Shown: positions 3,431 to 63,284, numbered from the stretch's first letter. The stretch: DNA of 64,000 nt from Okamejei kenojei (GCA_035221665.1 CM069174.1:8866001-8930000); one strand, 5' to 3'. Translations and numbers: made by a program. The notes: generated by a model not told the origin, from the sequence alone.

Positions 3431-3945
3431 GGCATAGTGGTTTATATGTCAAACAAGAACATACTTGTCATTTTATATATAGCAACTCGTGTATCTTATG
3501 AAACAGGGCCCTCTGGAGGCAACACTAAAAATAACCAAGTTGGACAGGCCATTGTCACACTGCAAGAACACAGATGAATCTTCCTCAACGGTGCCATATC
3601 ACAGTGTAAACACTCAGTGAAACAACAGCCGACAAAACTGTGGCTGTGCGACCCACCTGTTGGGGATAAAGCTCGCTCGTGTCAAAAAATACAATAAGCT
3701 ACTTCCGCAGGCTGACACCTGGGAGTTTCTGTGTTTTGTACCGTGCAGGCCAGCTCCCAATGCAGTGTGGCTCTTCTTCCAAAACAAGAAGAAATAAAGC
3801 CAAAGGCCATAAAAGTGACAAACCCTTTGAGCAGCTCTTACAGAAGCACAGTGCTATTTCCTGTTTTTCCCTCTACCTCTGGTGAAAGGCCATTGATCCA
3901 AAACAAACTATTTTTCTCTCTGCAAAGTGCAGGTGAAACTTTGTA

Positions 3946-4219
3946 GGTAGACAAAAGTGCTGGAGAAACTCAGCGAGTGCATCTATGGAGCAAAGGAAAT
4001 AGGCAACGTTTTGGGCCAAAACCCTTCTTCAGACTGATGTAGGGTGGGGTGGGGGGGGGGGGGGGGGGGGGGAGAAGAAAGGAGAAAGGAAGAGGAGGAA
4101 CCCGAGGGCTGAGGGAGAGCTGAGAAGGGGAGGAGACAGCAAGGGCTACCGGAAATTGGAGAAGTCAATGTTTATGCCGCTAGGGTGCAAACTGCCCAAG
4201 CGGAATATGAGGTGCTGCC
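3946..4219 (-). mobile_element. Penelope-like element 3' end with 12-bp TSD
   Basis: Reverse complement of 5080-5340. TSD TGAAACTTTGTA at 3934-3945 and 4220-4231. Hammerhead-like core with GAAA mutated to AAAA. Confidence 0.85.
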
Positions 4220-4231
4220 TGAAACTTTGTA

Positions 4232-4615
4232 TCAGGCAGCATCTGTGGAGGGAAATGGACACTCAACATTTTGGGTCAGGACCCTTCTTCAGACTGATTG
4301 GAGTATGGGTGGGGGTGGGGGGGGGGGGGGGGGGGGGAGGGCGAGGTGTGCAGCTGGAAGTGAGGAGATGGGGGTGTGACAAAGCCTGGCAAGCGATAGG
4401 TGGATACAGGTGAGGGGAGGATGGATTGGCAGATGGGTGGAGTCAGTGACAAAAGGCTGAAGATGAAAAGGAAACAAAAGGGTGTCAGATAAGGAGAGAA
4501 GAGGTGGAATGAAATGTAAAGCCAGAGGGGAGGGGGATATAGATGGAAGAGGATAGGTTTCTCTCTCCAGAGACAACCTGACCCATTGACCATCTCCAGT
4601 ATTTTTGGTTCTATT
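4232..4615 (-). mobile_element. Older Penelope-like 3'UTR/terminus fragment
   Basis: CAGGCAGCATCTGTGGAG...ACCCTTCTTCAGACTGATTG followed by purine-rich UTR. Same family as 43960-44305 in the opposite orientation. Confidence 0.65.
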
Positions 4616-4819
4616 TCACCATCCCTGGCATCACTATATATTTCTATTTAGATAGGAACCATTTGCAAACGCATTGGTTGTCTGTGGAAGAGAAAATGTA
4701 GTGTTCCCTGTATATGCATTATGTCCAGATTATACCGAAACATATTCCATTCTGTGCTTGTTGATAGCATTCATACAAAAAGTGTGCATGGGAATAAAAC
4801 AAGTTCGTAAGTCACGGGA

Positions 4820-5340
4820 ATGGGTGCGGCAGAGGTTCACCTGCACCTCCTCCAACCTCATCTATTGCATCCGCTGCTCTAGATGTCAGCTGATCTACAT
4901 CGGTGAGACCAAGTGTAGGCTTGGCGATCGTTTCGCCGAGCACCTCCGCTCGGTCCGCATTAACCAACCTCATCTCCCTGTGGCTCAGCACTTCAACTCC
5001 CCCTCCCATTCCGAATCCGGCCTTTCTGTCCTGGGCCTCCTCCATGGCCAGAGTGATCACCACCGGAAATTGGAGGAGCAGCAACTCATATTCCGCTTGG
5101 GCAGTCTGCACCCTAGTGGCATAAACATTGACCTCCAATTTCCGGTAGCCCTTGCTGTCTCCTCCCCTTCCCAGCTCTCCCTCAGCCCTCTGGCTCCTCT
5201 TCCTTTCTTCTTCCCGCCCCCCCCCCCCCCCCCCCCCCCGCATCAGTCTGAAGAAAGGTTTTGGCCCGAAACGTTGCCCATTTCCTTCGCTCTATAGATG
5301 CTGCCGCACCCACTGAGTTTCTCCAGCATTTTTGTCTACC
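4820..5340 (+). mobile_element. Penelope-like element: GIY-YIG endonuclease C-terminus and 3' terminus
   Basis: Translation RFTCTSSNLIYCIRCSRCQLIYIGETKCRLGDRFAEHLRSVR...LEEQQLIFRLGSLHPSGINID is a PLE GIY-YIG domain. Near-TSD TCGTAAGTCACGGGA (4805-4819) / TCATAAGTCATGGGA (5341-5355) differs by two CpG-type transitions. Confidence 0.9.
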
Positions 5341-5495
5341 TCATAAGTCATGGGAGCAGATTTAAGCCATTCGGCCCACTCCTCCATTCAATCATGGCTG
5401 ATCTATTTTTCCCTCTCAACCTTATTCTCTTGCCTTCTCCCCATAACTTTTGACACCCTTTCTAATCAAGCATCTGTCATCTTCACTTTAAAAAA
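5341..5495 (-). mobile_element. CR1 LINE 3' tail fragment
   Basis: CATAAGTCATGGGAGCAGATTTAAGCCATTCGGCCC...CATTCAATCATGGCTGATC is the reverse complement of a CR1 tail like that at 2100-2220. Confidence 0.75.
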
Positions 5496-5839
5496 AAACA
5501 TAAGTAAATGGAAGAGGCAGTTAGTGCTGCTAATTTGATGGTATATGGAGCAAAAGGAAACATTTCTAGTCAGCAGCAAGCAGTCACATAAAACTGATCA
5601 AACTACTTTACATTTTCAAACTCTGGAGGCCAGTACCAGTAACATCACAAGTATACCAAAATAGTTTCAAACTATTTCCAGCAGAATTATTCTTCACTTA
5701 GTGCAGACAGTTAACATTGAAAACACCCCTGAGAGACAAGAGTGAGAAATGTAAATCACAGCGCTTATACACACTAAATGTGTGAAAGTGCATAAACCAC
5801 TTGAAGTCGGGTTTTCTACAACTGTAACATCCAGGCTTG

Positions 5840-6565
5840 ATAATTGTTAAAGTACATGTGCTGCAAAGGGGCCAGGAAATGCCCATCATCAACAAGGCGA
5901 TCACTAATTACGTACCCTTGACCTTTAACCATCATTAAACCTTCCATGATCCCCTTCAATTCCAGACCCCCACAAAATCCCTTCCACAAGGCACATCAGT
6001 AGAACAAAAAAAAATCTTCATTTGCATTGGTACATGCAGGTCCAAATATCCACAATGCCATCCAGGACACACTAGCATGCTTAAATAGCACCTCATTCAC
6101 CTGGCTAAATATTCATTACCTCAACTATCGGAAAATACTGTTTGCAATGTGCACCATCTATAGAATGCATTGCAGAGACTCACTGTGAACAGAAGAAATA
6201 AACAAGGAAGAACATCATGCCTGCTCTGATCATGGTTGAGCTTATGGCCTCTGTGCCACATATCCCAAGTTCTCTTTGGTATCTAAAAATATTCAAGCCT
6301 TCTGAGACAACACCTGCCAAACCCAAGGCTTGTTCCCTCTGGCTGACACACAGGAACACCACCAACAGCAGGCTCTCCTCCAAATTGGACACAATGTTGA
6401 CTTGTTCTTTCACCGTCACAGGGGTCAAAATCCTGGAGATCCCTACTCAATGTACTGTGGGACTGCACAACTTCAATTCAGTGCATCATCACTACTTTCT
6501 GATGGGCAATTAGAGATGGGAATGGATGCTGACCTTCCCAATGCCCACATCCCATAAAAATAAAA
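5840..6565 (+). mobile_element. Old LINE (CR1/L2-group) 3' fragment
   Basis: Shares blocks (CATCCAGGAC, GTGCACCATCTA...ATGCATTGCAG, CAGGAACACCACC) with a second decayed copy at 13945-14340. Ends ...GCCCACATCCCATAAAAATAAA. Confidence 0.55.
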
Positions 6566-8689
6566 CCAAGTACATATACATGTTAAAAATCTAATACGGA
6601 AAGAAGAGGAATACAAAGACTTCATAATGTGAACAACATTTTTTGAGAGAAAATAATGAAATTAAAGAATTTAATTTTAATTAAGTTTGTAAAGCATTAA
6701 CTCATTTGTTTAACTGCTAATCCTGTTGCCTTTCAGTAGTAATTGTCATTGAATTTTGCAGTATAGAAACGGGACTTTGGCAACTTTTATATTCAATGCC
6801 CCAGCCTATGAAGACAAGCATACCATGTGCTTTCTTCACCACTCTATCTACTTATGTTACCAAATTCACAGGACTGTCGACTTGAAGCCGAAGGTTCCTT
6901 TGTTCATCAGCATTTCTTATCACTTTACTGAATATATCTGAGTTACTCCAGCACTTTGTTATTCATCTGTGACTAAACCATTGTCTGCTGCAAGATTATT
7001 ATGCTGCAATTAAACAGAGCCAAGTACCAAAGTACAATACAACACATTTAAAAAATCAAATCGGTTTCACTTCATCTCTATTTTTTTTAAATGGATCAAC
7101 ATAATTACAAGAAGGAAATAAAAGGTTTCTAAACTTACATAGTTTATATAAGGTGCATTTATTCTTTCACCATAGTTTACATATAATTTTTTGAGCTTTA
7201 AGAAAAATAAAACTTTCATTCATTTCAGATTTTAAGCCTACGTGAGTAAGTATGCACAATTTAATCAACCTTCTGTTTTTGTACCTATTGTTCAACTGGT
7301 AACTAAATGGTGTATGGTAGATGTGGTCCCATTTTGGGCCCCAGTCTATGGGATAAGTTCAGCTTGAGTTTGAGTTTCTGATGGCACTCCAGTGTTCCTT
7401 ACTGCCAAGTATATGTTTGCAAAAAACTGCATAATGACTAGTTGGGACAGACCTACGACACCTTTCAGGCACTCAATGAATGACTATCGAGGCAAGGTAT
7501 CCAAGGACAGTAGACGCCCAAACCACATCTCATGACCACTATCCTTCAAGAAAGAAACCAGAACATAATATACAATCTAATTATTGCCATTCTTACTCTC
7601 GCAAAAAAAAAAAAAAATTAATGTTCAAAAGTCTAAGATGTTTCTTCCCAAACTTGGGTTACTGTATAGTGATCAGCAGTAGAAACTCTGTTTATTAGTC
7701 CAGCTCCCTGAAATGAACCAATGACATTTCCCTGATTGCTATCCCAAGGTCAGTTCATTCAGGAGGCAGAACTGAACCTGGCACCTGCCTGATCTGGACC
7801 CATCACATATTGTAGCTCTTTAATTATCTCGAACATAATGAACGGAGTCAAGGTATTATTTTTCAGTTCTCGATGTACTGCAGCTTTTGAAAAAATTCCT
7901 CCCCAAAAATCGGTCAGACACTTGTGCAAAAACAGTTAATTGACAATAATACCTGCAATAATAACTGCTGCGGTAACTACTTGGTGCTTTTCATTTTTGG
8001 TGAGAAGAGTGCATATTATGTACTAGGATTGGGTGGAAATGTCAAACTTAGATAAATATCGTGATAAGTTGAAACCAGCCACCACATCAATGAGCCAGTT
8101 TGAACATTATGGTCTGGTGTACGCAGGGGTAAGTAAAGATTCAGGTTGCACACATCCAACTGCAATAACAGATGTTAATCAACCACCCTACCGCAAGTGT
8201 TCATGTGTATTTCTGTGTAAATCAGTTTGAAATTTGGCTCGCTGGGCTTTCAATTAACCTTTTCAAGCCCTTTGCTAATCCACCAAATCTTCTAAAACTC
8301 AGCAAATGCATCATAAAATCCCACATCTTGGAAGGATCGCCACACAATATACTTTAGTGTTTTAAATTAAGGCTTTGTGCTGTTGTTACCTCTTTGATGG
8401 TGAAGAATGCAAGTCTTGTTTAGTCATGACCCAAAAGCTTGTTCCTTCCACAATCCACTCCAGCGTGGAATTGATCCAACCGATTTTATCTCGCAAGGAT
8501 TAAATCTGTGATTCTTCTGGTTTAGTGCCCCAAAATTACCCAACCGAGTAACAAGGTTTTTAATTAAAATGTTATTAAAAAACATGATGTTAAAGTAACA
8601 CTTAAATCACTCCACCCCCTTGTACTTTCTTTTTGGAGAATGATTGAAATGTGAGATGTCCTTAAAACTCATGTCTTTCATTACATTAA

Positions 8690-8800
8690 AAAACAAAGTT
8701 CTGGAGTAACTCAGCTGGTCATGCAGCATCTCTAGAGAATATGGACAGGTCTTGTTTCGGGTCAGGAGCTTTCTTCTGATGGCACTCTTCTGACTGATTG
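8690..8800 (-). mobile_element. Short PLE-terminus-derived element
   Basis: CTGGAGTAACTCAGCTGGTCATGCAGCATCTCTAGAG...GTTTCGGGTC matches the family consensus. Confidence 0.7.
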
Positions 8801-9894
8801 TCTTTCATTATAGAGAGACCACACTTCATTGATAAATTGTAAGCCATAAGGAAAAAAATCAAAGCCTTATTTTAATCAAGGCAAGATTTGTAATTATACT
8901 AAACTGGCATTTGGGCAACTTGTGCTTGGATAGGTTTTTTCTTTAAATAAACCATCCAAATCCAAAGCAGACACATTAGTTCAATGTATATTTGAGATTC
9001 TTCTACACTACTATGTCATTCATGCCAAGTTAACTGAAGTTGGACTGAAGTTCTGCATCAATTTATCAGTCTCATTTATTCCTTTTCTTGCCAGATCCTT
9101 CAATTGCTTCAGTCTGGACTGGATGCAAAATGTTCTCAAGAGAGTAATCGTCTTCTGCATTAGAACCCAAGACTGCAAATGTCAATTTGGTGATAGTGCT
9201 GGTGATGGCCCCCCAGATTATCCTTTTCCATTTACAAGGTTTAAGGTGATGTGGAGTTGGAAGTGACAGGAATTGATCCACTGCCAAGCCTACAACAGAT
9301 AGGATTCAACAGGGTGATCTTTATGCTCATCAAGGTGGTGGTCATCATGGGTGAAAAAAGGAATGACCTATTTTCGACATTGTCAGATAACTCGGTGATG
9401 TGTTTTTCACAAAAAATAAGGTAATTTGTGCTTTGTCCAATTATATCTGTCAAGCACCTTGTTCAAGTTGACTATTTTTACAACTGCCGTTGAATTGAAA
9501 TGGTCAGTTCATCAGCTATTTTGTGCTGCAGACTCACTAGAAACTAGACTGGTGCTGAACAAACTTCATTTCTGGGTTTACACCAGCAGGGAAGACATTA
9601 AATGTGTGTGAAGCTAAATTCCAAGTTCAAGTTTAATGTGTGTCAAACTGAATCAGTACAAAGCTCACGATTCCTTATTCTCACAAGCGTACACTGAAGA
9701 TTACATTTAAAATATCAACACAAATTCAAATTTGGGCTAAAATTTATTAAAATAAATGCAGAAATGCATGCTGTATTGTAATTATTTGTTATAGCTTTCT
9801 CAATCATACTGCATTAGGTGCAATTATGTTGAGGGAGGATTCATTTGAACCAAAACATGTAATATAGGCTGGTTTTCTCCCAACATGACAGCAT

Positions 9895-15257: not shown

Positions 15258-16189
15258 GTAACAGCGGACGTTATTTGCGTTTCCTGTCCGGTTAACATAG
15301 GGTTACAGTCACAGTATACAGTGTCCCTATTTTGCCCTTCTCCTAAACTAAATACAGACATACAGTCAGTAGGTTGACAAACAAGGCGCTAAACAAAAGG
15401 AATAAGTTCATTTAAAATGCTACAAATGAAAAGGTTTGGGGTACTGCACGGTAAATGGATGCCTTTTTTTGTTTTGCAATCAAGGCTTGATGATCACACT
15501 ATTGACTGGACCCAATAGTAGAAATATTCAACGTAAAATTAAAGTTTTTAGCTTTTGAATCCAAAGAGCGAGGATAAAATGCAGAAATCCTTAGAACGCG
15601 CTAGGCAAAAGTCACCTTATGGGAGCTATTTATTTTAGAGGAACTCTACCTCCAAATGGTTAGCCAACTTTACAGAACAGTGTCTGCTTTATTCAATTAT
15701 TTAAGCAGAATGCAGTTGTCACTGGGTGACAGTAATAAGATGGGGTCCCTGGTCTTCAATCACTAATTTATAAAATAGTTTTCTGTCAGGTATAAATTAC
15801 TTTTTGGAAGTGCTAGATCTTGGCAAAATAAAAATACCAACTTCATTACTTTTAGTTCAGCTCACACTTCAGGGTTTTGTCCATCTACAGCGACATCTAC
15901 AAGTGATTTTCAATGACTCTTACCGTCTATACTCTTTTGATATACCCTTTATACACTGCTTGGTTTTTTTTCTTCCAATTTTATGTCATTTGAGTTTCCT
16001 TAGGAGGTTCCTACACCCATTCCAACTTACAATTCCAAAATTTCAAATTTATTTTCAACAAAATGAAATTGAGGAAGTGATTCTAGATACAAACTCGGCC
16101 TTCAGGCTCTTCTGCATGCATTAAGATTCATAATTTGATCCAATTTACGCACAGGTCCAAGGCTAAAGAATACAGTAATCAAAAAACGT

Positions 16190-16405
16190 AAGACGCACAT
16201 GCTGGAAATCTGAGATATAAACAAAACAAAGAATGGTGGAGATGCTTTACAGGTCTGGCAACACATGTTGAGGGAGGAACAGGGTTAGTATTTTAGGTTG
16301 ACCACGTTTCATCAAAATTAAATTATGATAAAATAGTTCTAATGAAAGAAATCAACCTGTTCCTCTCTCCACTAGTGTTGCCAGACCTGCTGTGTATATC
16401 CAGTG
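16190..16405. mobile_element. Degenerate fold-back PLE-derived element
   Basis: GCTGGAAATCTGAG...CAGGTCTGGCAACAC at the left, with the inverted GTGTTGCCAGACCTG at 16375-16389. Confidence 0.55.
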
Positions 16406-24601: not shown

Positions 24602-24695
24602 CTGAAGAAGGGTCTCGACACGAAACGTTACCCATTCCTCCTCTCCAGAGATGCTGCCTGTCCCACTGAGTTACTCCAGCATTTTGTGTCTACCT
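24602..24695 (+). mobile_element. 94-bp PLE-derived element with hammerhead core and 16-bp TSD
   Basis: TSD ATGACTAAATTCTTGT at 24586-24601 and 24696-24711. Insert begins CTGAAGAAGGGTCTCGACACGAAACGTTA. Confidence 0.9.
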
Positions 24696-29522: not shown

Positions 29523-29709
29523 GGGTACACAAAAAGCTGGAGAAACTCAGCGGGTGCAGCAGCATCTAAGGAGCGAAGGAGATGGGCGACGTTTCGGGTA
29601 TCGAAACGTCGCCTATCTCCTTCGATCCTTAGATGCTGCTGCACCCGCTGAGTTTCTCCAGCTTTTTGTGTACCCTCGATTCTCCAGCATCTGCAGTTCC
29701 TTCTTTAAC
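29523..29709. mobile_element. Fold-back (palindromic) PLE-derived element with 16-bp TSD
   Basis: 75-bp arms at 29522-29596 and 29602-29676 (2 mismatches, 5-nt spacer) plus a ~33-nt tail. TSD ACATGGTTCACAACAA at 29507-29522 and 29710-29725. Confidence 0.92.
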
Positions 29710-30702: not shown

Positions 30703-31200
30703 CATACCTGCCAACTTGTGAGAATGAAAAATCGGAATCTGATGTCAGTGAGGGCGGGGCACGTGACGTCAGTAAGGGGCGGGGCACGTGACGTCAGTAA
30801 GGGGCAGGGTTACGTGACGTCAGTAAGGGGCGGGGTGCGTGACGTCAGTGAGGGGCGGGAAAGTGACGTCAGTGAGGGGCGGGAAAGTGACGTCAGTGAG
30901 GGCGGGAAAGTGACGTCAGTGCGGGGGGGGGGGCAAGTGACGCCGAACGCCACCGTGGCGGGGCGGGGTCATGCGGCTGCGTGCTGACGTACACCCGTGC
31001 GTGCCCCCCTAAGCGGCGCAGGCGCGGTGCGCTCTCTCGCTGTCTCCTCGCTGCCGCCGCCGCCATGGGTCGCATGCACGCTTCCATCCCAATTCCGAAT
31101 TCCAATTTTTTTCGGAATATTGAGGAAAAAAATCGGAATTCGGAATTGGGATGGAAAAATCGGAAGAATTCCGCCCAAATCGGAATGGTTGGCAGGTATG
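30703..31200. mobile_element. Non-autonomous DNA transposon (MITE, possibly hAT-related) with 13-bp TIRs and 6-bp TSD
   Basis: TIR CATACCTGCCAAC (30703-30715) / GTTGGCAGGTATG (31188-31200). CCACTG duplicated at 30697-30702 and 31201-31206. Repeated subterminal CGGAAT motifs; CpG-rich. Confidence 0.88.
30740..30945. repeat. Minisatellite (23-26 bp unit) of TGACGTCA plus GGGCGG
   Basis: Seven perfect TGACGTCA (starting 30764, 30789, 30815, 30840, 30864, 30888, 30911) plus degenerate copies at both ends, separated by G-rich linkers. Confidence 0.95.
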
Positions 31201-33469: not shown

Positions 33470-33612
33470 AGGTAGACAAAAATGCTGGAGAAACTCAGCG
33501 GGTGAGGCAGCATCTCTGGAGCGAAGGAATGGGTGACGTTTCGGATCGAGACGCTTCTTCAGACCCAAATTGTTTTGTCTACCTTCGATTTTTCCAGCAT
33601 CTGCATTCTTTC
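33470..33612. mobile_element. Partial fold-back PLE-derived element with 14-bp TSD and hammerhead motif on the minus strand (33567-33530)
   Basis: TSD TTAGAGAGAAACAG at 33456-33469 and 33613-33626. Confidence 0.9.
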
Positions 33613-39389: not shown

Positions 39390-39511
39390 GTGTAAGAAAG
39401 AACTGCAGATGCTGGTTTAAATCAAAGGTAGACACAAAATGCTGGAGTAACTCAGGCAGCATCTCTGAAGAGAAGGAATGGGTGACGTTTCGAGTCGAGA
39501 CCCTTCTTCAG
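39390..39511 (-). mobile_element. Short PLE-derived hammerhead-core element
   Basis: Full terminus AAGAAAGAACTGCAGATGCTGG...GGTGACGTTTCGAGTCGAGACCCTTCTTCAG. Confidence 0.85.
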
Positions 39512-41604: not shown

Positions 41605-41885
41605 ATTAGCAAAACACAAAAACTGCTGGAGGAACTCAGTGGGTCAGGCCACATTTGTGGAGGAAAAATGATAGATAATGCTTCGAGCCGGGTCCCTTCT
41701 TCAGACTCGGTCAAACTAGTTGTCGCACAGATCACAAGATTAAAAATGCACTGGAAATATTTATATAGTGCCGACTCAAAATGTCACCTGTGCATCTCCC
41801 TCCATGGATGCTGGCTGACCTGCTGAGTTCCTCCAGCAGTTTGTTTTTTTTGCTCAAGATTCCAGCATTTACAGTCTCGTGTCAA
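41605..41885. mobile_element. Older fold-back PLE-derived element
   Basis: AAACTGCTGGAGGAACTCAG...GGTCAG at the left, with the inverted CTGACC.GCTGAGTTCCTCCAGCAGTTTG at about 41815-41843. Confidence 0.75.
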
Positions 41886-43490: not shown

Positions 43491-43879
43491 ATTGAATTGA
43501 GTAATTGCAACATTTTAGCGACTTTGGATCATACCACAGCAGACCTAAAATCCTTCTTCCTAGAAGCTATACGCAGAACAAAATGCATACAGGTCCATTC
43601 AAAGTTTGGAAATGGACAAAATTTAACTCGAGTATATGATAATAGCAAGTTGAGAGCACCAGGAAGCACTATGGGGCAGTTACAACAGCAGGAGCATATT
43701 GAAATGAAGACCACTTGCTGAGAAAAGAAAAATGGAACTTACTACAACTGCCAGAAACAACTAAGCCTGTAACACTTGGGTAGCTTACAACTCAGCTGTA
43801 TGACCTGTTTATGTAGTGTACAATCCAATGGTATGCACAATAAATTCTCCAATTTCAAGTACTATCTCCACTACACGTC

Positions 43880-44305
43880 ACCCGCCCTCCCCGTACACAC
43901 ACAGTTATCCCACTCCCACATTCACCCTACTCCTTCCCCGCCTTTGTACATTAATCTCCCACATTTTCCTTTTATCCCTGCTTTCCCCCACTCCAACCAA
44001 CCCAAGCCTCCGGATTTACATTTGACTCCTTTTCTTTCCACATCCGACACCCTTTTGTCCCTCTTTCATCTCCAGCTGTTGGCACTATCTCCACCCATCT
44101 GCCAATCTACCCCCTCACCTGTATCCACCTCTCACTTGCCATATTGTGTCACACCCCCACCTCTCTTATCCAGGTTTAGCCCCCTCCACCCACCCTCCCC
44201 ACCACACTCCAATCAATCTGAAGAAGGGGGCCGACCCCAAACGTCAGCTGTTCGTTCCGTCCACAGAAGCTGCCTGACCCGCTGAGTTCCTCCAGCACTT
44301 TAAAA
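43880..44305 (+). mobile_element. Penelope-like 3'UTR (pyrimidine-rich) and terminus
   Basis: Reverse complement of 4270-4550. Ends CTGAAGAAGGGGGCCGACCCCAAACGTC...GCTGAGTTCCTCCAGCAC. Confidence 0.75.
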
Positions 44306-44861
44306 AAAAAATTAGAGCCTTTGACACTGCTGTTTACTTGCTCATTGCCTCGTGTTCTCAACTGCTTACCAGTGATTATCTGCCTTCAGCTAAGAGGGAA
44401 TAGGTACGGAGCGTGAATTTTCCCACAACAAATAGTGAATACAACAAGTAAAACAATCTAAAAGAAGATTTGCACAGAGTTCAGCATTTGAGATATATGG
44501 CTTATTTTACATAAACACGACTACGCTGATAATGTATATTTTGTTCTGGTCAAACAAAGTAATACAAAACAATGCTGGGAAATGAAACATTTCCACCTTT
44601 GGTATATCTTCTCTGCATCAAGCATACATATTGCAAATAAAATTATGACCCCAGTATGGCGTCCCAAATCATCATCAAGGTAAATTGTCGGCTTAAAGAT
44701 CCCAGTAAGAGGAGCTTACCAAATGCTAGTGCTTTAAAGCTATACTGCTCAAGAGATGGATAATACGTTTGAAAATGATTTCAGGGAGAACAGGTGGGAG
44801 GAGGTTGGGGTGGTGGGGGGGATGGGGGGTAACTTTTATGGTTTGAGCTGTGCAGTAATCA

Positions 44862-44978
44862 GCCTGAAGAAGGGTCTCGACCCGAAACGTCACCCATTCC
44901 TTCTCTCCAGAGATGCTGCCCGTCCCGCTGAGTTACTCCAGCATTTTGTGTCTATCTTCGATGTTCCTTCCGACACAA
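44862..44978 (+). mobile_element. Short PLE-derived element with intact hammerhead core (44864-44891)
   Basis: CTGAAGA-A-GGGTC-TC-GACCC-GAAAC-GTC-ACCC followed by the family 3' end. Confidence 0.88.
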
Positions 44979-47025: not shown

Positions 47026-47525
47026 ATAGACACAAAATGCTGGAGTAACTCAGCGGGCAGGCAGCATCTCTGGAGAGAAGGAATATGTGACGTTTCGGGT
47101 CGAGACCCTGGCAACTTTATATGCCTCTTTTAATTTAATACCACCCGCATTCTCAAGTCAGTCTACTGATGAATTACTTGCCCTGTTGTTTTTTTGTGCA
47201 TTCACTTTTTTTTGAAATGTGGACTATTTCTTTAAAATGCTAATCACTGTCTGTCCACCATCATGCCTTTCAACGTGTTCTCCCAATGTACCACAGCCAA
47301 CTCTTCTACCCTCATGCCTTCATTGTATTATATGTTTAATTTAAACCCCAAGTTTTACAATGTTTTACATCATTGATCACATTATGGTCACTCTTCCCCA
47401 AAGGCCCCTTGACAAAAGTTGTCTAACCATTGATAGACACAAAATGCTGGAGCAACTCAGAGGGTCAGGCAGCATCTCTGGAGAAAGGGAATAGGTGATG
47501 TTTCGAGTCGAGACCCTTCAGACTG
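47026..47525 (-). mobile_element. Two short PLE-derived elements (47026-47109 and 47433-47525)
   Basis: Both read ATAGACACAAAATGCTGGAG.AACTCAG...GGCAGCATCTCTGGAGA...GTTTCG.GTCGAGACCCT. Confidence 0.85.
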
Positions 47526-49713: not shown

Positions 49714-49845
49714 GACTGAAGAAGGGTCTCGACCCGAAAACCTCACCCATTCCTTCTCTCCAAAGATGCTGCCTGTCCCGCTGAGTTACTCCAGCATTTT
49801 GTCTACCTTCAATTTAAACCAGCATCTGCAGTCCTTTTCTACACA
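49714..49845 (+). mobile_element. Short PLE-derived element
   Basis: CTGAAGAAGGGTCTCGACCCGAAAAC...GCTGAGTTACTCCAGCATTTTGTCTACCTTC...CCAGCATCTGCAG. Confidence 0.85.
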
Positions 49846-51777
49846 TTAAAATGGAGGCTTCAGCAAGTATTAAAAACAGAACAGCTCTTTTGTTATATAT
49901 AGATAGGAAGTTTAAATTTATGAACTTTACATTTAGCCCTGAACGATTGCTGCCTTGCCTTGCACCTTGCTGCAGAAGAATGATAATCTTGATTTAATTT
50001 AATTGTGTAGAATAATCTTTAAACATTTTTCAGTCAAAACCACCTCAAAAATGCTGTTAAAATGCTATTTACATTAGCTAAATACGTCAGGAATATTACA
50101 ATCAGTAACAACCTATTCATATAGTGAAAGGCTTTTATTATGAAAATATTTAACGAAGTACATTTCCCTTCCGAAGGGCTATATCTATTCAAATTGACAA
50201 CATGAAAAAGGTCAACATTTTGAAACGCCAATTGCGGAATCTTGGATTCCCAAGCAATTGTGGTCATTTGAACAGCGCTGAATGCATCTGGTTGCTCGGT
50301 ATTTGGGAGTTTGTAGTACTCTACCCAACCTATATGGATGAGAGGAAAAGAGGAAGCATGCAAAATTGAAGAGGCTTGCAATTTTCTGGGTTGTCCGCCA
50401 GTGCAAGGTGCAGTCTGAAAGATTTTTAATATGCATCTCTAATGGCACCAACATTTATCCGGTGAATGGATAAGATAAACCCAACCAGGTTGTCACAGTT
50501 CAGTTCTGTGCTTAACTGAACAGCAGCTGTCAACTACAACTGGCTGGGTTGACGAAATAGGTTGTTGTTCCCAATCCCCCATCCAGTGATCCCTGCTGGA
50601 AGTACACAAGCATCAGGGGAGAACTCAATCAGGAATAACAGAGGACAGCCTCCCCTGTGGTCGGGCTGCCTTTCATATGTGTTGTTGTCTTAAATGGGTA
50701 CTTTGATCAAGCACTAAGGGCAATCAGTGACAGAGACAGAACCACAACAAAAATGCCAACACCTTGTCAAGAAGGCAAGGGAAAAATCAGCTCGAGGAGA
50801 AAGGATTTCTCAGTTCCATGAGGACATGTGCTCAGTTTTTTTCATTTCCAAGCCCAGCGGTAAACTACGACTGTAGATATAACTTAAAATATATTTTAAA
50901 GACTGCAAACAGCATGGAATTATGAAAGCACTAACGACACACCAAATTACAAGATTATACAGACAACAATGCATTGCATAAATTGTTCAACAAAATTATG
51001 CTGAGAGCGGTACAGTAAATATACCAACAAATTACACTTTTTTACCGCTCTTAGGAAGTTTGCTGATGTGATTTGCTTGTCATCTCTCGCACAATGTTTC
51101 CTGAAACACCGTGACATTTAATCAAGAAATATCAGGAAAACAAGCTAGAAAATATAACTTGGGTGCATGAGAGTCCCGAGTCCCACAACAAACATTCTTC
51201 CTTTCACTCAATTGTAATGATGTTGGCAATGTCCAATGCAAGCTGCGGACCACACAAGTCTGTCCTCTTGGTTAAATCCTTTCAGCTCCTTTATGAAGGA
51301 CCCCTTTACAGATCATTTTAATTTTGACAAATCAGATCAGAAACAATCCGCAAGAAATAAGTCACATAAAATTGGAACAGAACCAAAAAGCTGCCTGCAG
51401 TGCACCTCAAACTTATTTTGTGCATCTCCTCGTAATAAATTCCTGAGCTCAGAAAATGAGACTGCTGACCACATAATGGAGCGACCCAAGTATACAATTC
51501 AATTCCTTCATCTGAACAAATTAGTGTTTCCATTTGTCTGCATTGATCAAAGATAGACACATTTAACTGCCTATCCTTCTAACTCTTCTTAAACAGAAAT
51601 GAGCAAGAACAATACAAAAACCCTTCAATTCTCTCATGTCTTTCATAGCCACAAGATAACCCAAAGTGTTCTGCACCCCAAGAAATATTTTTGAAGCATG
51701 CCATCGTTTGAAAGCCAAAGGGTATGGGGTAATAGATCAGCAGTAAATAGGGTCAAATGGGTTAAACAAAAAAAACC

Positions 51778-52205: not shown

Positions 52206-53299
52206 TAACCCTGTACATTGAATGTTTCAGGGTACTTGATCTCTTTGAAAACTAGGCAGAATGTATTACCCCATGCCCTTTGGCTTTCAAACGATGGCAT
52301 GCTAGGAATTTGGGGGGGGGGGGGGGGGGTGGGGGGGGGAGAAGAGATGAAAAATGAAAGAGATAGCAACTCTGACAATAACAAATAGCATGAGGGTAGG
52401 GAGATACACACCTCGGCTAAATATCGGAGCAACACAAAAAGACAATTAAAAAATACTAGTGAGAAGTCTAGAGATTCCTTGACAGAAACAGTACTGATGG
52501 ACATGGCTTCAATCATGAAATAATAGGAACTGTAATAAAAAGTTGTGTAATGACCATTAAAAATCTGAAAATCAGAATGGTACAGCACAAGAACAGGACC
52601 TTTGACCTGTGCCAAACATGATGCCAAGACCATCTACCTGCACATAATCCATATCCCTGCATATCCATAAGCCTCTTAAATGCCTCTATCATATCTAAAA
52701 TCTTCAGAGACTGCTCAAATCAAATTGACAAAGGTGATATTGAGGATGGGTTCATGAAATGCATTGCAGTGTCCCACAGCAATACTGGATGCATTGATGA
52801 GCAAAACACTGCAGGATGTTGGAAATCGGATACAGAAAATGCTGAAAATCAGAAACAGAAGGTGCTGGAAATGCTCAGCATATTAGGTAGCATCTGTGAG
52901 GAAAGAAACAGTTAATGTTTCAGCTCAATGACCTTTCAACGAGGATAGATGCAATGTGTGGAATGAGACCACACCTCACCAAGGAATCCAACGAATGCTT
53001 ATCGACCTGAAATGTCAACTGTGCTTTTCTTTCCAGTCGATGCATTGGCTGCCATTTTCCAAAATCCTAGATTCTGGAAAGGTCGCAGCAGACTGAGAAT
53101 AGAACAGCAAACATGACACAGCTGTAGAAGGGAGGAGGAAACAGGAACTTGCCTGGTGGCTAAACCATCATGGCTATTACATGCATTGAAGACTGAGAAA
53201 GGTTTTTGTACCACAAGTGAAATCAAGGGCTGTGGGCAAAATGCTAGAAGTATTAAGGAAATGATAACTGAGCAGGTAGAAGAACACAGTGTAATTATA

Positions 53300-54425
53300 G
53301 AGAATGAATATCGTTTTATGAAACTTTAAGAAACGTATAAGCAGGGCCAACAGTGGGGAATCGGTGGATGTAGAGTTTTTGGATTCCTAAAACACTAGCT
53401 GAGCCGACACCTGACCTCAGCATGGTAGAGGATGGCCTATCAGATTGCAATGGCACTATAAAAATATCATTTTTGACATGGTAAGCTGTCGGGTTCCGCA
53501 AGTGTCAAGCCTCAGCTATTAATCTATTACAATGACTTCGATAATGGGACAAGGTGGAATGCATTTATGTGCACTACAGTACTCGGGTTGGAAAGAGCAG
53601 ATAAAAATAACTGACGGGAGAAACAAGAGACTGCAGATGCTGGAATCTTGTGTTTAAAAAAAAACTGCTGAAGAAGAATCCTGACCAGAAATGCCGTGTG
53701 TCCATTTCCCTCCACAGATGCTGCCTGGCCCACTGAGTACCTCCTGTAGTTCTTTTTTAAATCTACAAAGGGATATAGGCAGATTAAGTGAGTGGGAAAA
53801 GTGAGAGCAGATGGAATATAATTTTGTGAAATACAAAGTCACCAACTGGTACAAAGATGAGAAGGCTCGATAATTAGATATTGGTGTTTGGCGAGGTCTG
53901 GGTGTCCTCGTACAACAGAGTTAGCACCCCTCTGAAAAAGAAAGACATTGGTCTTCATGTCAGGGTGGACGGAGAAGAGCAGGAGTTTTTTTTTAAAACT
54001 ACACCTCAACAGGACTTTGGTGAAGCATTGTTTTTGGTCTTGAAAAAAATACCTTTGCTTTGAGGGCAGTGATTCCTAGGATGGAAGGATAGCAAAGGTA
54101 GTACACCCTGGGACAACCCACTGGGAATTCAGAAGAATCAATGATCTCATCTAAGGGAGCTTAAGGCTGCAGATACTGTGAGGATATTTCCTCTAGTGGG
54201 AGGGTGCAGGACTAGAGTACAGTATCAAATAAAGGGTCAGTCACTCGATTGAAAGGCAGAGGAATTTCTTCTCATTAAGTCTGTGTATCGTTTCCCCAGA
54301 GAGTTGTGAATATTAAGTTATTACATGTATTTAAGCGTTATGGGAATATGGCAGAAAAAAAGATAAAGATCAAATGAGCAACAATCTTATTGAATAACAG
54401 ATGATCTGCGCCGGTTCCTATTTTC
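53300..54425 (+). mobile_element. Decayed CR1 RT/3' fragments with a PLE-derived element nested at about 53620-53760
   Basis: GGGTTCCGCAAG...CCTCAGCTATT, CTACAAAGGGATATAGGCAGATTAAGTGAGTGGG and GGAATTTCTTCTC blocks are CR1 RT remnants. The nested part reads GACTGCAGATGCTGGAATC...CTGAAGAAGAATCCTGACCAGAAATG. Confidence 0.6.
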
Positions 54426-55539
54426 CACTTACGACAAGTTCTCATAAACAACCATATAACAATGACCAGATAGCCCTTTTTTAAAAAAAAACACAGAAAA
54501 GCATTAGTTAGGACCAGAGGTCTGTTCAGTTACAAAATTAAACCCAAATGCATTTTTTTTTCCCTAAATCCAACCATCACCAAATGCCTGCCTGCTTCCT
54601 TCTTGCTGAATTAGCAACAACCACACGAATGTGAGATGTGCCACACACTGAATGGACTAGTCATTCATAAAGAAACTTGCTCAAAGGTTTCAACCAATGC
54701 TGTTTTAAAACAAAAAGAGGCTACATAATGGATGGACTGTGTTGCTGCTGCAAACAAGATTGTTATTGTACCTCACCGTACATTGTGCAAGCGACAACAA
54801 AATTGACTCGGCACAAAGTGTGGCACAACCGTTTGTTATCAAGTATGCTCAAACGTAACTTTAAGCTAATCAGGAATCATTCTTAATATCTTTAAAGGGA
54901 AGAGATAATTGAGAATAACTGAAGCACCAATGCCATTATTCGTAACTCACAATAGAACAAGCAGCAACTCAAATTTTGGCATCACTGCAAGAAAACCTGT
55001 GATTTATCTGCATTGTATGAGCATTTGAACGGAGACTTAACTGGACCAGGGGCATATGGAAGGAATGAACTATGTAGCAGCTACATAATTTAATCGAAGT
55101 AGAATTGAGTATAAAAGCCATGCATGGCAAAGAAATCTGCCCATGGCAGTCCAGGGTTACTCATTAGCCAACTTAGGAAATATGCCAATTTCTGAAATCC
55201 CACAGTAATGACTGACTCCCACAGTAATGCCACCCTTTAGAAAAGACGGCAATTTTAACCAAGCATTTCACAGAACTTCATTTCTCAGGATGATACTAGC
55301 TTTCATGTCTGGCCAGGGACCATCGTCTGACAAAGTACTATTTTGCGGAGTCAATTTAAATTTTGCTGCTTTCTTCCTTGCTCACCCAGCTTCCCCACAA
55401 ACGGATGGACTTTCCCCTCCGACAAGCATGATCACCCTGTGTTACTGGCAAAAAAAAAACACAATTCAGCACACAGACTTAACTCAGCCCATCTCACTGA
55501 ATGTGCAGGAAACAAAGACACAACACAAAGCTTTTTGCT

Positions 55540-56118
55540 TAAGAAGGAACTGCAGATGCTGGAAAATCAAACGGTAGACAAAAGTACTGGAGAAACTCAG
55601 GGGTGCGGCAACATCCATGGAGCGAAGGAAATAGACAACGTTCGGGCCGAAACACTTCTTCAGACTGATGTGAGGGTGGGAAGAAGAAAGGAAGAGGTGG
55701 AGCCAGTGGGCTGAGGGAGAGCTGAGAAGGGGAGGTGAAAGTAAGGACTACCTGAAATTAGAGAAGTCAATGTTCATACCGCTGGGGTGCAAACTGCCCA
55801 AGTGAAATATGAGGTGCTGCTTCTCCAATTTACGGTGGTCCTCACTCTGGCCATGGTGGAGGCCGAGGACAGAAAGGTCGGATTCGGAATGGGAGTTGAA
55901 GTGCGGGAGATCAGGTTGGTTAATGCGGACAGAGCGGAGGTGTTCGGCGAAGCGATCGCCAAGCCTACACTTGGTCTCACCGATGTAGAGCAGCTGACAT
56001 CTAGAGCAGCGGATGCGATAGATGAGGTTGGAGGAGGTGCAGGTGAACCTCTGCCGTACCTGGAAAGACTGCTTGGGTCCTTGAATGGAGTCAAAGGGGG
56101 AGGTAAAGTGACAAGTGT
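55540..56118 (-). mobile_element. Penelope-like element: GIY-YIG C-terminus and complete 3' terminus
   Basis: ORF 55748-56218 contains SIQGPKQSFQVRQRFTCTSSNLIYRIRCSRCQLLYIGETKCRLGDRFAEH. Candidate 11-bp TSD AGCTTTTTGCT at 55529-55539 and 56119-56129. Confidence 0.9.
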
Positions 56119-56409
56119 AGCTTTTTGCTCCACTTTTTACAGGGACGCTGATCCAGCTTCCCCGCAAACAGATGGACTTTCCCCTCCTACAACCACGAAC
56201 ACTCCACGTTACTGGCATAATTCAGAAGATGGACTCGGCCCATCTCGCTGAATGCGTAGAAAACAAAGAGAATTAATTTACAAGCAGACAACAGCTTAGT
56301 GGTTATCGACCCTGTAAGGACTCAACGCTTTGGAGTCTGCAGGAATTGAAGGTTGCTGTCCATAGACACTGTTGGGAGCAAAACTCAAAAGACTGACAGA
56401 CATGACATG

Positions 56410-56506
56410 CATAAGAAAGAACTGCAGATGCTGGAAAAATCGAAGGTAGACAAAAAAAGTTGGAGAAACTCAGCAGGTGAGGCAGCACGTTTTTGTCTAC
56501 CTTCGA
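56410..56506. mobile_element. Short fold-back PLE-derived element
   Basis: TCGAAGGTAGACAAAAA ... TTTTTGTCTACCTTCGA inverted arms. Confidence 0.8.
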
Positions 56507-56509
56507 CAT

Positions 56510-56662: not shown

Positions 56663-57144
56663 CTGGGAGGTAGGCTTAGACAAAGTCAGGCCAAACTTGG
56701 CAATATTGCAAGCTGGGTCCTAACTTGCTTCAGAGAGGTACAAGCGACACGGATCAACCCTCAAGTAAATGACTGAACGCATCATTCCAGCAAGGTATAC
56801 AAAACACAATCTCATCATCAAATCCATCACCTCATAATCATCAAAAACATATCTTACTCCAGGGCAAGTTTAGAATCAATCACAGTTATCACTCTTTTGT
56901 CTTCCTTTTCTTATTTGTCAGGGTTACCTTTACAATGGACGAACATCCCAAAGATCTGTGGTTGTTAGGTGGTTTAAAGGAGAACTGAGGTGTGGTGTGG
57001 GATGGGGAAAGAGGAAATGGTGGGTAGTTGATCAGTACGTGAGAGAATAGATTATAGGATTGCTCCAAGACCAGCATAGACTCGATAGACTGAATAGCTT
57101 CCCATCTCAGAAGAAAACATGAAAAAACATAAAAGAATCAAAAC

Positions 57145-57270
57145 ACGTGAGACTGTAGGTGCTGGAATCGTAAGCAAACAACAACAGTTGGAGGAACTCA
57201 GCGGGTCAGGCAGCATCTGTGAAAGGGATGAGCAGACAACGTTTGGCTCGAGATCTTTCTTCAGACTGGT
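57145..57270 (-). mobile_element. Short PLE-derived element
   Basis: GACTGTAGGTGCTGGAATC...GGAGGAACTCAGCGGGTCAGGCAGCATCTG...AACGTTT...TTCTTCAGACTG. Confidence 0.8.
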
Positions 57271-60367: not shown

Positions 60368-60785
60368 AGTAGGCCCCCTTCGGTCACAACTGACCATGGG
60401 TGATGCATCCTAGTTTGCAGGTGACGTGTGGTCGGATGCAAGCCTGGGCAATATCATATGGAGGACAGGCTGTTGCCCATGCAGCACGTCCCCCCTCTCC
60501 ACGTTGCTGATCGATCCAAAGGAACAGCAGGGCCGTTACAATTTGGCACCAGCGCCGTTGCAGGAGCTGCCAGAGCGAGGTTGCAGACAATGATGAACTG
60601 CCTTAGGGGCTCCGACTCCGGATTTTCTTGAGGTTTACTCCAGGACTGGATATGGCCACAAGGCCGTGGAGGTTTTCCCTCTCCTAGATGGACCGCCTTC
60701 CCAGGCTGACAAGCCCCATCTGCCCGAGGCTCATGGGGGCGGGAGCGTCTACCTTCCCGTGCAGGTCTATAGCACCTGCCCACTG
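60368..60785 (-). mobile_element. GC-rich non-autonomous non-LTR element (RTE-type leader and 3' end)
   Basis: Minus strand GTCAGCCTGGGAAGGCGGTCCATCTAGGAGAGGGAAAACCTC resembles RTE-type 5' leaders. It ends CATGGTCAGTTGTGACCGAAGGGGGCCTAC. Sharp GC contrast with the flanks. Family assignment is uncertain. Confidence 0.5.
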
Positions 60786-60863
60786 TCAATATATGTCAAC
60801 ACCATCACTGCAAGAGTAACAATAATTCTAGATAAGTAATTCACTCATACACTACCAGCACAG

Positions 60864-61062
60864 ATAAGTTCATAAGTGATAGGAGCAGAATTAGGCCACT
60901 CGGTCCTTCAAGTCTACTCCGGCATTCAACAATCGTTGATCCACCTTTCCCCCATTCTCCTGCCTTCTCCCCATAACCCCTGACACCCGTACTGATCAAG
61001 AATCTATCTAGGCATGCCTTAAAAAATATACATTGACTTGGGCTCCACAGTCTTCCGTGGCT
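60864..61062 (-). mobile_element. CR1 LINE 3' tail
   Basis: GATAAGTTCATAAGTGATAGGAGCAGAATTAGGCC...TGCCTTCTCCCCATAACCCCTGACACCCGTAC. Confidence 0.8.
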
Positions 61063-61578
61063 GATGTCGAATGTACGGCCAAGACTCAAGATACAGAATA
61101 CTGATCAAGGTTCAACATATTCCAGGATCTCAGTACTTGATATCTTCTAAATTCATTGACCACATTTGGTGAGGCACACAAGGTGGACGACATTTCACTT
61201 AACAATAGTGAGAAAATTTTTTTTTGTATTTATAATCTGGGTCAGTGTCACCGATTTACTGAGCGGAGGCAGAAATCTTGCACATCAGTCAGTCAGCATA
61301 GTTCCACACAGAATTATTGATCTCTATGTAGTATTATTAATCATGCTTTTCTCAATGTTCATTTGGATTTGATTCCCTTTATTTGCCAATTGCACCTGTA
61401 CAATCAGAAAACCTAATTAACCATCTTACACTTTTGTAAACAAACTTATTTTTTGTGTCTTCGAAATCCATACAAGGCAAGAACGGATCATAAAAGAATT
61501 ACATGTGCCCTACACCCCAAAACCTTTATATTTTCTTAATTTCAATGGACAATTATTACAAAGGAGTGAGATGACCAA

Positions 61579-62634
61579 AGGTAGAAACAAAATACTGGAG
61601 TAACTCAGTTGGACAGGCAGCATCAAAGGAGAGAAGGAATGGGTGACGTTTCGGGTCAAAACACTTCTTTTGAACATCATCCATTCCTTCTTTCCAGATA
61701 TGCTGCCTGTCCCGCTGAGTTAATCACTTCCTCCCCGTGTACCTCGGAGTCACACTCGACAGGACACTCTCTTTCAAAACCCACCTTCAGAACACCAAAG
61801 CCAAGGTCAACACTCGCAACATCCTGCGCAAACGGATAAACTCAAAGTGGGGCGCTGATCCACCAACCATCCGTGCAACTCCCCTAGCCCTGTGCTTCTC
61901 CACAGCTGAATACGCTTGCTCAAGCTGGAGCCGCTCCCACCACATCAAACTGGTTGACACAGCCCTCAACAACACCTGCCGCATTATCACGGGATGCATA
62001 AAGACAACGCGTCCCATGCCTCTACGCCCTAGCTGGTATTGCACCCCCCCCCCCCATATTAGACGATCCATCGTCACCCAAGACGAGCGGAGAGCACAGG
62101 AGATCGATACCAGGCACCCCTTGTACGGACACACAGCACCTCTACCCCGACTGAAATCCAGAGCCAGTTTCTTGCAGACAGTCCCACCTCTCCAGACAAC
62201 CAAAGAAACAGCAAGGACCAACATCTGGAAAGATGAATGGAACCAGCTCAACACACAAGCCCACGACTGGATAGAGAGAGGAATCGCTCCGACTGAATGC
62301 CTCGCCAGCGGGCACGACCTCCCATGGCCAACCTGGAAGACCCTCAACAGATTACGAGTGGAGCAGGGGAGGTGCAAAGCACTTATGAAAGCATGGAACT
62401 ACCAGGCAGAAGACACATGCAGCTGTGAAGCAGTACAGACAATGTCCCATATACTGGAGTGTGACGACGCCCCCCAGTGCAGCCCCCAGGACCTGGCTGC
62501 ACCGACCCAACCAGCTGTGACCTGCACCAGATACTGGCAGAACGACATCTGAGATTGCAATGGACTCGAAGAAGAATCCAGCATTTTGTGTCTATCTTCG
62601 GTTCAAACCAGCATCTGCAGTTCCTTCCTAGACA
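61579..62634. mobile_element. Fold-back PLE-derived element split by a LINE (parts at 61579-61722 and 62577-62634)
   Basis: The left part ends CCCGCTGAGTTA and the right part resumes TCCAGCATTTTGTGTC. Imperfect TSD TGAGATGAC(C)AAAG at 61567-61580 and 62637-62649. Confidence 0.8.
61723..62576 (+). mobile_element. 5'-truncated Vingi/Ingi-type (I-group) LINE: RT end, C-terminal CCHC, (GAA)n tail
   Basis: ORF 61737-62552: YLGVTLDRTLSFK...KWGADP...LALCFSTAEYAC...ITGC...WKTLNRLR...CSCEAVQTMSHILEC...YWQNDI, with no RNase H. A short frameshifted segment at about 62010-62050 reads CLYALAGIAPP in another frame. Tail GAAGAAGAA. Confidence 0.78.
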
Positions 62635-63284
62635 ATTGAGATGACAAAGCTTTATTCCAATTTTTTTTTCTGCATTATGACATAAGAGCTTATTTTAAAA
62701 ACGAAATTAACAGCTTAGTTAATTCTCACACACAACTTTTTCTCATGCATTATTTAAGTTAACTCAGCTGAAGAGACACTAGCAGCTGATACAACCACAA
62801 TCTTGTTCAACGACTATCATCTTCATAATGAGCAAGGCTTAAAAACAATGACAGAAAAGGTTATTCAACCCTTGAGCAGCAGATTTTACTTTGCACAACT
62901 GTTACCCAAAAATATTGGGTAAAATTACAACTAATTCAACTTCTGCCAAAACAAAATTCGCTTGAATAAAGTTGGCCGCATTCATAAATTGAAATCTTCC
63001 AAATTTTGATTTGTTGGACAAGTGTGACATATTTTCTGTTAAGGGCATGTTATGAAATGCCCTACATCACTTCAGGATGCAGTCAAAAGGAAGACATCAG
63101 GAGTTATGCAGTTAGGCAAGATTTTCTACCTAAAATAGACTCACAAACCCAACAACATAGAAGCAGTTAAGAGTAGAGTGGTAGAGATGGGTATCATCAA
63201 ATACAAACATGGAAGTTATGCTCATTTGAATGAGCATAGCTCCCATGTTTCGGGCATATAAAGTCCATCGGGCATATAGAGTCA

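Follow-up and report, generated by a model that had tools for sequence, protein, structure and literature searches.

Hammerhead-bearing Penelope-like insertions in and beside the IKZF4 gene of a skate, and the 5' boundary of their copies

Introduction

The sequences described here most closely resemble the minimal type I hammerhead motifs that lie downstream of the endonuclease in Penelope-like elements (PLEs) of animals (Cervera and de la Pena 2014, PMC4209133). These motifs follow the consensus CUGANGAH-G..C-GAAAN-palindrome-UH behind a pyrimidine-rich 5' flank. The fluke, coelacanth and frog genomes hold about 2,000-9,000 each, mostly as single copies, and teleosts have similar motifs; some copies form opposite-strand pairs 100-700 bp apart, and the solo copies are ascribed to truncated PLEs (PMC4209133). 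The list of 56 motifs in that paper includes no cartilaginous fish. Here we describe a family of the same kind, again with opposite-strand pairs and solo copies, in 64,000 nt of the genome of the skate Okamejei kenojei (GCA_035221665.1 CM069174.1:8866001-8930000), a stretch that we call the window throughout. Its insertions lie in and beside the skate IKZF4 (Eos) gene.

Three further systems invite comparison. Endonuclease-bearing (EN+) PLEs of the Neptune clade (Craig et al. 2021, PMC8557442) share with the window copies a GIY-YIG endonuclease at the C-terminus, with a CxxC motif, as well as the heavy 5' truncation, the inverted truncated arm and the 30-40 bp tail at one end that are typical of PLEs; they also share a zinc-finger-like linker, which is found in homologs of the window copies. 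Their targets are microsatellites, whereas those in the window are ordinary sequence with clear duplications. The Poseidon element PAc of Anolis (Frangieh et al. 2024, PMC11167929) resembles the skate family in having two internal starts of reverse transcription that bound its tail, the tail being the distance between them and both target strands being cut and extended. It also uses an uncleaved RNA template, with no reads that end at the ribozyme cut site. However, PAc belongs to a different clade, and its open reading frame (ORF) starts at stem II, where lineages A-C of the skate family have no start codon. Animal non-LTR retrozymes (LTR, long terminal repeat) are likewise short non-coding hammerhead repeats, related to PLE pseudo-LTRs and dispersed as solo monomers, but they are defined by tandem units (PMC7229834, 10.64898/2026.07.22.740005), of which the window has none.

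The literature that we searched, which mostly leaves out subscription papers, holds no account of this skate family or of a pile-up of PLE 5' ends at a hammerhead, although Repbase or Dfam may contain the family. Mapping of 5' ends, as carried out here, is not reported in the available text of PMC4209133, nor is a pile-up before the core reported for PAc in that of PMC11167929.

Results and Discussion

A dense repeat family forms the end of a GIY-YIG element

At E<=0.01, a profile iterated from the window copies matches 29 times, whereas 10 shuffled windows give no match; a covariance model returned 33 matches within the window at E<=1. Assigned by hand, the arms fall into 23 insertion loci, one per ~2.8 kb (Table 1). 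An earlier sequence-only reading of this DNA had listed 19 coordinates and claimed about 20 copies across the window, at about one per 3 kb. All 19 are contained in our loci and the claimed density agrees with ours; the listed copies are real, but several of those given as single units are two-armed inverted insertions. An exact 30-nt pattern had no match in bacterial and archaeal genomes. Four lineages are visible, with mean pairwise identities of 0.87 (A), 0.78 (B), 0.905 (C) and 0.74 (D), in a tree whose support is mostly low. Lineage C, the most uniform, is the youngest, and lineage D is old.

Its position bears out the proposal that this unit forms the pseudo-LTR end of a PLE of the GIY-YIG type. 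It lies ~100 nt past the stop of the GIY-YIG frame in both copies named at the time, 4821-5341 and 55540-56118. It also closes a third GIY-YIG copy of greater age, which runs on the minus strand from 2849 to 1259, and it terminates two shorter ones in which no more than the last part of the endonuclease frame survives, clearly so at 3946-4219 and weakly at 43773-44312. The endonuclease is a C-terminal GIY-YIG domain with CxxC between GIY and YIG, as expected of EN+ PLEs. Pfam GIY-YIG matches, at E 4e-4 and 9e-4, fall just below the curated cut-off; our own endonuclease profile matches window copies at an independent E-value (iE) of 1e-55 or better and picks up extra pieces at 4220-4149, 2849-2317 and, weakly, 43800-43859.

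Twelve protein relatives in databases, mostly from batoids, show 47-77% identity. Two intact ones, P0003 and P0005, carry the C-x4-C-x2-C linker that marks Neptune and Nematis elements (PMC8557442), and a PLE-type reverse transcriptase (RT) is present in homologs P0005, P0006 and P0010, the last by a weak RVT_1 match. Our element probably belongs to the Neptune clade. The window copies begin within or after the RT-EN linker (CX2-5CxxC), and ORF 4656-5297 is PLE from ~4821 onward only. The GIY-YIG frames of the long copies tie lineages A and D, and probably B, directly to the endonuclease.

Short copies share the anatomy of long ones

In 10 of 20 intervals, drawn by eye after several duplications had already been seen, the ends carry target duplications of 10-16 nt (score >=9), compared with 1% of 300 random intervals; two further intervals score 7-8, and eight show no convincing duplication. 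Counted from core base C3, the copies have two 3' ends ~35 nt apart, a short one near +94 and a tailed one near +128, and each of the six clear inverted insertions (29523, 33470, 41610, 53620, 56410 and 61579) pairs one short with one tailed end. Both 3' ends, the inverted arms and the target duplications are common to the short copies and the long GIY-YIG copies, so that extreme 5' truncation suffices to explain the short ones. An inverted element joining the copies at 3946 and 5248 was also considered and is ruled out by their separate target duplications.

We consider it probable, then, that these are insertions of a GIY-YIG PLE, nearly all of them 5'-truncated, that belong to at least four successive lineages. 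The insertion type works like a standard EN+ PLE end, and its class is already known. Several points weigh against this explanation. The evidence comes from a single 64-kb window, which contains no RT region and no full-length or tandem master; the RT is missing because all copies are truncated, and the clade is for that reason inferred. Lineage C has no long copy within the window, 10 of the 20 intervals lack a strong target duplication, and a search of the window against Rfam at E<=10 gave no hammerhead family. The set of 5' ends discussed below was curated by hand, and a weak old arm left out of it (16352) aligns from ~+29, at the cleavage site. Finally, if there are short masters, the copies need not represent independent events.

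The sequence-only reading had gone further and let the ribozyme-bearing terminus amplify as a unit of its own, akin to a short interspersed nuclear element (SINE) or a retrozyme. In a SINE-like element, solo copies of 95-130 nt, at least those of lineage C, would be transcribed and recopied in trans by PLE protein. We regard such an independent status as unlikely, given that 5' truncation is sufficient. It would fit the uniformity of lineage C and its lack of long arms (0 of 7, against 5 of 12 in A and B), the fixed 5' boundary, the presence of both priming sites within the unit, and the ability of PLE pseudo-LTRs to act in trans (PMC3846280). The difference in long arms is not significant, however (p=0.11); lineage B, which has long copies, shows an identical 5' stop, and short A arms sit next to long A copies in the tree. 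We found no tRNA-derived head and no Rfam match of the tRNA, 7SL or 5S type. Three lineage C copies do contain, on the antisense of 44864-44957, 47026-47109 and 49716-49808, look-alikes of an A-box and a B-box ~40 nt apart, each with one mismatch, a pattern noticed before it was tested and met in 5 of 2000 shuffles. Yet these are antisense, occur in only 3 of 23 arms, none of them from lineage A, B or D, and lack a position that is invariant in such boxes.

The 5' ends of copies cluster just ahead of the core, away from the cut site

For the mapping of 5' ends we kept 26 of 33 aligned arms, dropping six weak ones and one continuation. Five begin far upstream, 11 at -7..+1 and six at +2..+23; none begins at +24..+34, around the cleavage site, one does so at +35..+61, and three lie beyond. 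The stop rate is thus 11 per 80 nt travelled in the -7..+1 zone versus 1 per 848 nt at +24..+61, and no end occurs in the 810 nt travelled at -8..-169. In 20,000 simulations with a constant stop rate, no 8-nt zone ever received 11 ends. The earlier remark that several copies begin at or near the catalytic core therefore holds far beyond chance.

The upstream flanks of the 11 core-start arms are not pyrimidine-rich, unlike those of the long copies, and resemble the long copies or one another no more than background does, save for two that share their own inverted tail arms. Because these flanks are unrelated, the 5' boundary is not an artefact of the reference copies. As no confident arm starts at the cut site, self-cleavage does not define the copies; and with ends before the core and none near the cleavage site, the copies appear to come from uncleaved RNA.

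In a non-LTR retrozyme, by contrast, tandem units would self-cleave, circularise and be reinserted via rolling-circle copying. The type I topology of the hammerhead agrees with this, and retrozymes have been reported as PLE derivatives, including in one chondrichthyan (10.64898/2026.07.22.740005). In this window, however, the retrozyme reading is largely refuted and most improbable: there are no head-to-tail arrays of the unit, the paired arms being inverted; none of the 26 confident arms begins at the cleavage site, past which the copies extend by ~65 and ~100 nt; and the motif is minimal, not canonical.

The sequence in front of the core bears on what halts copying there. All five well-preserved long copies are 77-96% pyrimidine at -60..-9, and CAG precedes the core in four of them. 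The string TCAGT before the core resembles what we take to be an initiator. A true RNA start, combined with priming in the upstream pseudo-LTR, is the likeliest cause of the stop, although we advance it tentatively; the Penelope pseudo-LTR has an internal promoter (PMC2377424). Almost as likely, the polymerase may dissociate on reaching the C-rich pyrimidine tract just upstream. The same tract and the AG could also form a 3' splice site that ends an intron, in which case short copies would derive from spliced RNA or from stalling at bound splicing factors; indeed, the intron of the Drosophila virilis Penelope ends at the 5' end of helix I (PMC4209133). We judge a splice-site effect improbable. 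Short copies have no common exon-like sequence upstream, the AG is kept in 5 of 11, two of which retain ~7 upstream bases like those of long copies, and PLEs are reported to retain introns on transposition (PMC8557442). We rejected a G-quadruplex in the cDNA as an explanation of the stop, since copies would then end within the C tract and -8..-169 contains no ends.

The hammerhead motif is genuine, its activity doubtful

The core string is present in the sequence as the earlier reading described it, and the unit fits the metazoan PLE minimal consensus, with an extra base after A9, G10.1-C11.1 and a palindrome at 15.2/16.2 (ACGU), in keeping with the minimal type I assignment. Stem II, previously given as five pairs (GGGTC/GACCC) and a 2-nt loop, is better drawn with 4 bp and a 4-nt loop. 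Our own descriptor, which requires the core, a stem II of at least 4 bp and a palindromic helix III but no helix I, finds two sites in the window, none in 200 shuffled windows and one in 100,000 shuffles of one unit. This result and the position after the endonuclease together exclude a chance match; the bare core string by itself has 5 matches against a shuffled mean of 0.84 and a shuffled maximum of 5. The statement that several copies have lost or mutated the core was correct, many being degenerate, but understated the decay: no core mismatch is found in five of 19 aligned arms, and an intact core with all four stem II pairs in only two. Overall 78.9% of stem II cells are paired, and the first pair is G-C in 13 of the 19 arms.

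Core conservation and stem II covariation had been named as the tests of the ribozyme claim, and they gave different answers. The CUGANGA(H) and GAAANNUH boxes, with the palindromic 15.2/16.2, are identical in the majority rows of lineages A, B and C; all 13 core columns agree between these rows versus 39 of 54 downstream (p=0.025), a modest sign of preferential conservation. Covariation is no better than in shuffles (score 0.189 versus 0.194, with 288 of 500 shuffles as high), in a set of 19 decayed copies that gives little power. Moreover, the GGGTTT/GGCCC variant that was to reveal it is a one-sided change from U-A to U-G with likely CpG decay and is not compensatory. Nor did the proposed model and descriptor searches recover the hammerhead in the window: the published descriptor, with helix I set at >=2 bp, finds 0 sites there, and the Rfam matches at E<=10 are hairpin look-alikes over inverted arms and other palindromes.

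Helix I measures 4-5 bp in lineage D and ~3-4 bp in lineage B; in lineages A and C it does not exceed 2 bp. This trend rests on few degenerate copies, D reaching 5 bp only when the strands of two copies are combined. The young lineages thus fall below the 3-bp minimum of the published descriptor, which requires a helix I of 3-7 bp, although cases with 2 bp occur among published PLE hammerheads (PMC4209133). In folding models, the predicted probability of stem II is 0.35-0.91 in five of six fragments that end at the cut site, at most 0.06 in five of six once the sequence to +45 is included, and 0-0.11 in full-length folds, where downstream pyrimidines pair with the core. The RNAalifold consensus of the 19 arms had just 3 pairs (-0.37 kcal/mol) and no hammerhead, and a double-hammerhead fold is predicted to lie 18-30 kcal/mol above the minimum free energy of the dimer in four of four copies. 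Ribozyme activity of the window copies is doubtful.

It is accordingly quite possible that the motif of the young lineages no longer cleaves and is kept as part of a protein-binding or promoter region. Such a decayed relic would be compatible with the explanation of the insertions as truncated PLEs. The shrinking helix I, the absence of sites for the published descriptor, the low stem II probability in full-length folds and the lack of a covariation signal all point this way, as do the core-bearing arms within IKZF4, which lie six in sense and five in antisense and so give no sign of selection against cleavage of the IKZF4 pre-mRNA. The identity of the 13 core columns and the published 2-bp helices argue the other way. 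Furthermore, the anole PLE hammerhead cleaves only with protein (PMC11167929), so that a poor fold of the naked RNA is to be expected. The PLE hammerheads on record are slow, dimer-dependent or protein-assisted (PMC4209133, PMC11167929, PMC6765202), and 8 of 9 Xenopus dimers did not cleave (10.64898/2026.07.22.740005). We infer that the ribozyme of the master elements works only as a dimer or with help from protein, and we propose that short copies keep the catalytic boxes, lose the 5' strand of helix I and then decay neutrally.

A model for the insertions and its implications

In the mechanism that we favour, the element protein would nick the target on both strands, and reverse transcription would start at two fixed internal sites of the RNA, ~94 and ~128 nt downstream of C3. 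One start would give a single arm; two would give an inverted two-armed insertion with a short and a tailed end and a duplication of 10-16 nt. Uncleaved RNA would serve as the template, and copying would usually end at a point immediately upstream of the hammerhead core. If transcription begins in the upstream pseudo-LTR and priming takes place internally in that same pseudo-LTR, run-off copies 95-130 nt long would result. From published work we carry over, by analogy, two-site internal priming, the tail, and the dependence of PLE hammerheads on a dimer or on protein.

With this window, a skate joins the animals known to carry minimal hammerheads of PLEs, and does so at high density. What goes beyond the published accounts consulted here is the map of 5' ends, whose stops lie ahead of the core, with none at the cut site. 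It offers genomic support, in a second PLE clade, for an uncleaved RNA template, and opens two questions to direct test, namely how the 5' end of a PLE copy is determined and which purpose the ribozyme serves. If confirmed genome-wide, the shortening of helix I across the lineages, from 4-5 bp down to 2 bp, would provide a natural series on whether catalysis is being lost or passed to the protein.

A bolder version holds that the PLE transcript starts a few bases before the core, that priming inside the upstream pseudo-LTR then gives mini-elements of 95-130 nt, and that the youngest skate lineage is a self-propagating, non-autonomous one; this strikes us as somewhat unlikely. If true, it would explain the thousands of solo minimal hammerheads in animal genomes, and genomic data alone would then establish where the PLE template has its 5' end. 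In lineage C, the unit at 44864-44995 (plus strand) is open in frame from C3, and a comparison of the translated unit with proteins gave one unnamed, uninformative match. The pseudo-LTR of other PLEs takes in the opening codons of the ORF, and the skate unit may likewise encode the ORF start.

Feature positions, host gene and other observations

Table 1. Insertions of the hammerhead-bearing family and coding exons of IKZF4 in the window. 5' starts such as ~-7 or +8 are counted from core base C3; UTR, untranslated region; LINE, long interspersed nuclear element.
Feature	Position	Strand	Details
Lineage D long PLE copy, older	1259..2849	-	profile iE 2e-17; covariance E 5e-7; decayed linker and GIY-YIG frame ~2849-2290; 3' UTR split by LINE piece (~1570-2230); degenerate unit at end, 1351-1259
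Lineage A, 274-bp 5'-truncated copy	3946..4219	-	last endonuclease codons and C-rich UTR retained; core at 4032; short 3' end; 12-nt target duplication
Lineage B copy and weak inverted arm	4232..4640	core 4292 on minus; arm 4558-4640 on plus	at least 236 nt of upstream UTR; 3' part lost beside 3946 insertion
Lineage A long copy	4821..5341	+	frame encodes GIY-YIG, its CxxC lying between the two motifs; UTR rich in pyrimidines; core 5248-5275; 3' end short; target duplication of 15 nt, 2 mismatches
Downstream-box fragment, 22 nt, weak	6938..6959	+	profile and covariance matches
Lineage B short copy	8684..8798	-	core mutated; local duplication at start, ~-7; target duplication of 12 nt
Lineage D inverted pair, degenerate, old	16186..16405	both	profile and covariance matches
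Lineage C short copy	24602..24695	+	starts at core; short 3' end; perfect 16-nt target duplication
Two-armed insertion	29523..29709	minus arm short end, plus arm tailed	CUGA box absent in both; 16-nt target duplication
Two-armed insertion	33470..33612	minus arm from -2, short end; plus arm tail only	minus arm with core boxes intact, stem II 3/4; 14-nt target duplication
Lineage C copy	39390..39511	-	starts exactly at C3; core and stem II intact; tailed 3' end; target duplication looked for, none found
Lineage B two-armed insertion	41610..41883	both	~60-nt spacer; 15-nt target duplication, 1 mismatch
Lineage B long copy	43773..44312	+	core 44218; C-rich UTR; probable remnant of endonuclease C-terminus (weak)
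Lineage C copy, best-preserved core	44857..44975	+	core 44864-44891; predicted cut after 44891; tail partly deleted
Lineage C copy	47026..47109	-	starts at stem II (+8); short end
Lineage C copy	47433..47525	-	starts -4; 3-nt deletion in first box; short end
Lineage C copy	49716..49848	+	starts at C3; second box mutated; tailed end; 10-nt target duplication
Lineage D copy, old	52810..53043	main copy 52941-52810 minus; weak arm 52999-53043 plus	
Lineage B two-armed insertion	53620..53762	minus tail arm; plus arm from C3 (53668)	
Lineage A long copy	55540..56118	-	linker end; GIY-YIG frame; UTR; core 55663; tailed end; 11-nt target duplication
Two-armed insertion without core	56410..56504	both	8-nt target duplication
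Lineage B copy	57143..57268	-	starts -4; tailed end
Lineage C two-armed insertion	61579..62636	minus arm from core, short end; plus arm tailed	12-nt target duplication, 1 mismatch; interrupted by later LINE-like 3' fragment ~61722-62576
IKZF4 coding exons	near 60177-60061, 42860-42576, 40628-40452, 32271-32119, 25548-25411, 23957-23229	-	mapped exons

Two of the inverted insertions contain extra sequence between their arms. At 33563-33571 (minus strand), a filler at the arm junction is nearly complementary to 33526-33534, the sequence past the cut site, and possibly arose by fold-back synthesis. In this gene-sense intronic copy at 33470, the filler is predicted to give a 5-bp helix I (-6.6 kcal/mol), and stem II is damaged. 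The spacer of ~60 nt at 41708-41769 has no convincing match elsewhere in the window and was perhaps captured by template switching.

IKZF4 runs on the minus strand from 23229 to 60177, and the insertions within that span are intronic. Its last exon is 99% identical to Eos of Leucoraja erinacea and 97-98% identical to that of other batoids and a horn shark. At 29203-28992 (minus strand), sequence that weakly matches (46-58%) an additional segment in a Heterodontus isoform of Eos may be an alternative IKZF4 exon.

Other repeats adjoin the family. Pieces of an interspersed LINE-type repeat occur at 1528-2230, 5342-5480, 32559-32600, 33740-33885 and 60871-61010, and the PLE copy at 4821-5341 abuts the edge of one. 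The LINE-like 3' fragment inside a PLE arm at 61722-62576 (plus strand) holds a 277-aa frame and ends in a GAA repeat; the frame has no Pfam match, and its Atlas neighbours are eukaryotic RT-family clusters at 0.92-0.94. Similar sequence flanks the PLE copy at 55540 on both sides (55330-55540 and 56120-56290), which suggests an older local duplication around it.

At the window start, the stretch 60-800 is GC-rich with GGC repeats and looks like the CpG-island promoter of a neighbouring gene. Within an IKZF4 intron, about eight tandem copies of a GC-rich unit of 24-25 nt at 30740-30931 contain TGACGTCA, presumably a cAMP-response-element-like (CRE-like) site, and a long hairpin lies nearby at 31083-31155.

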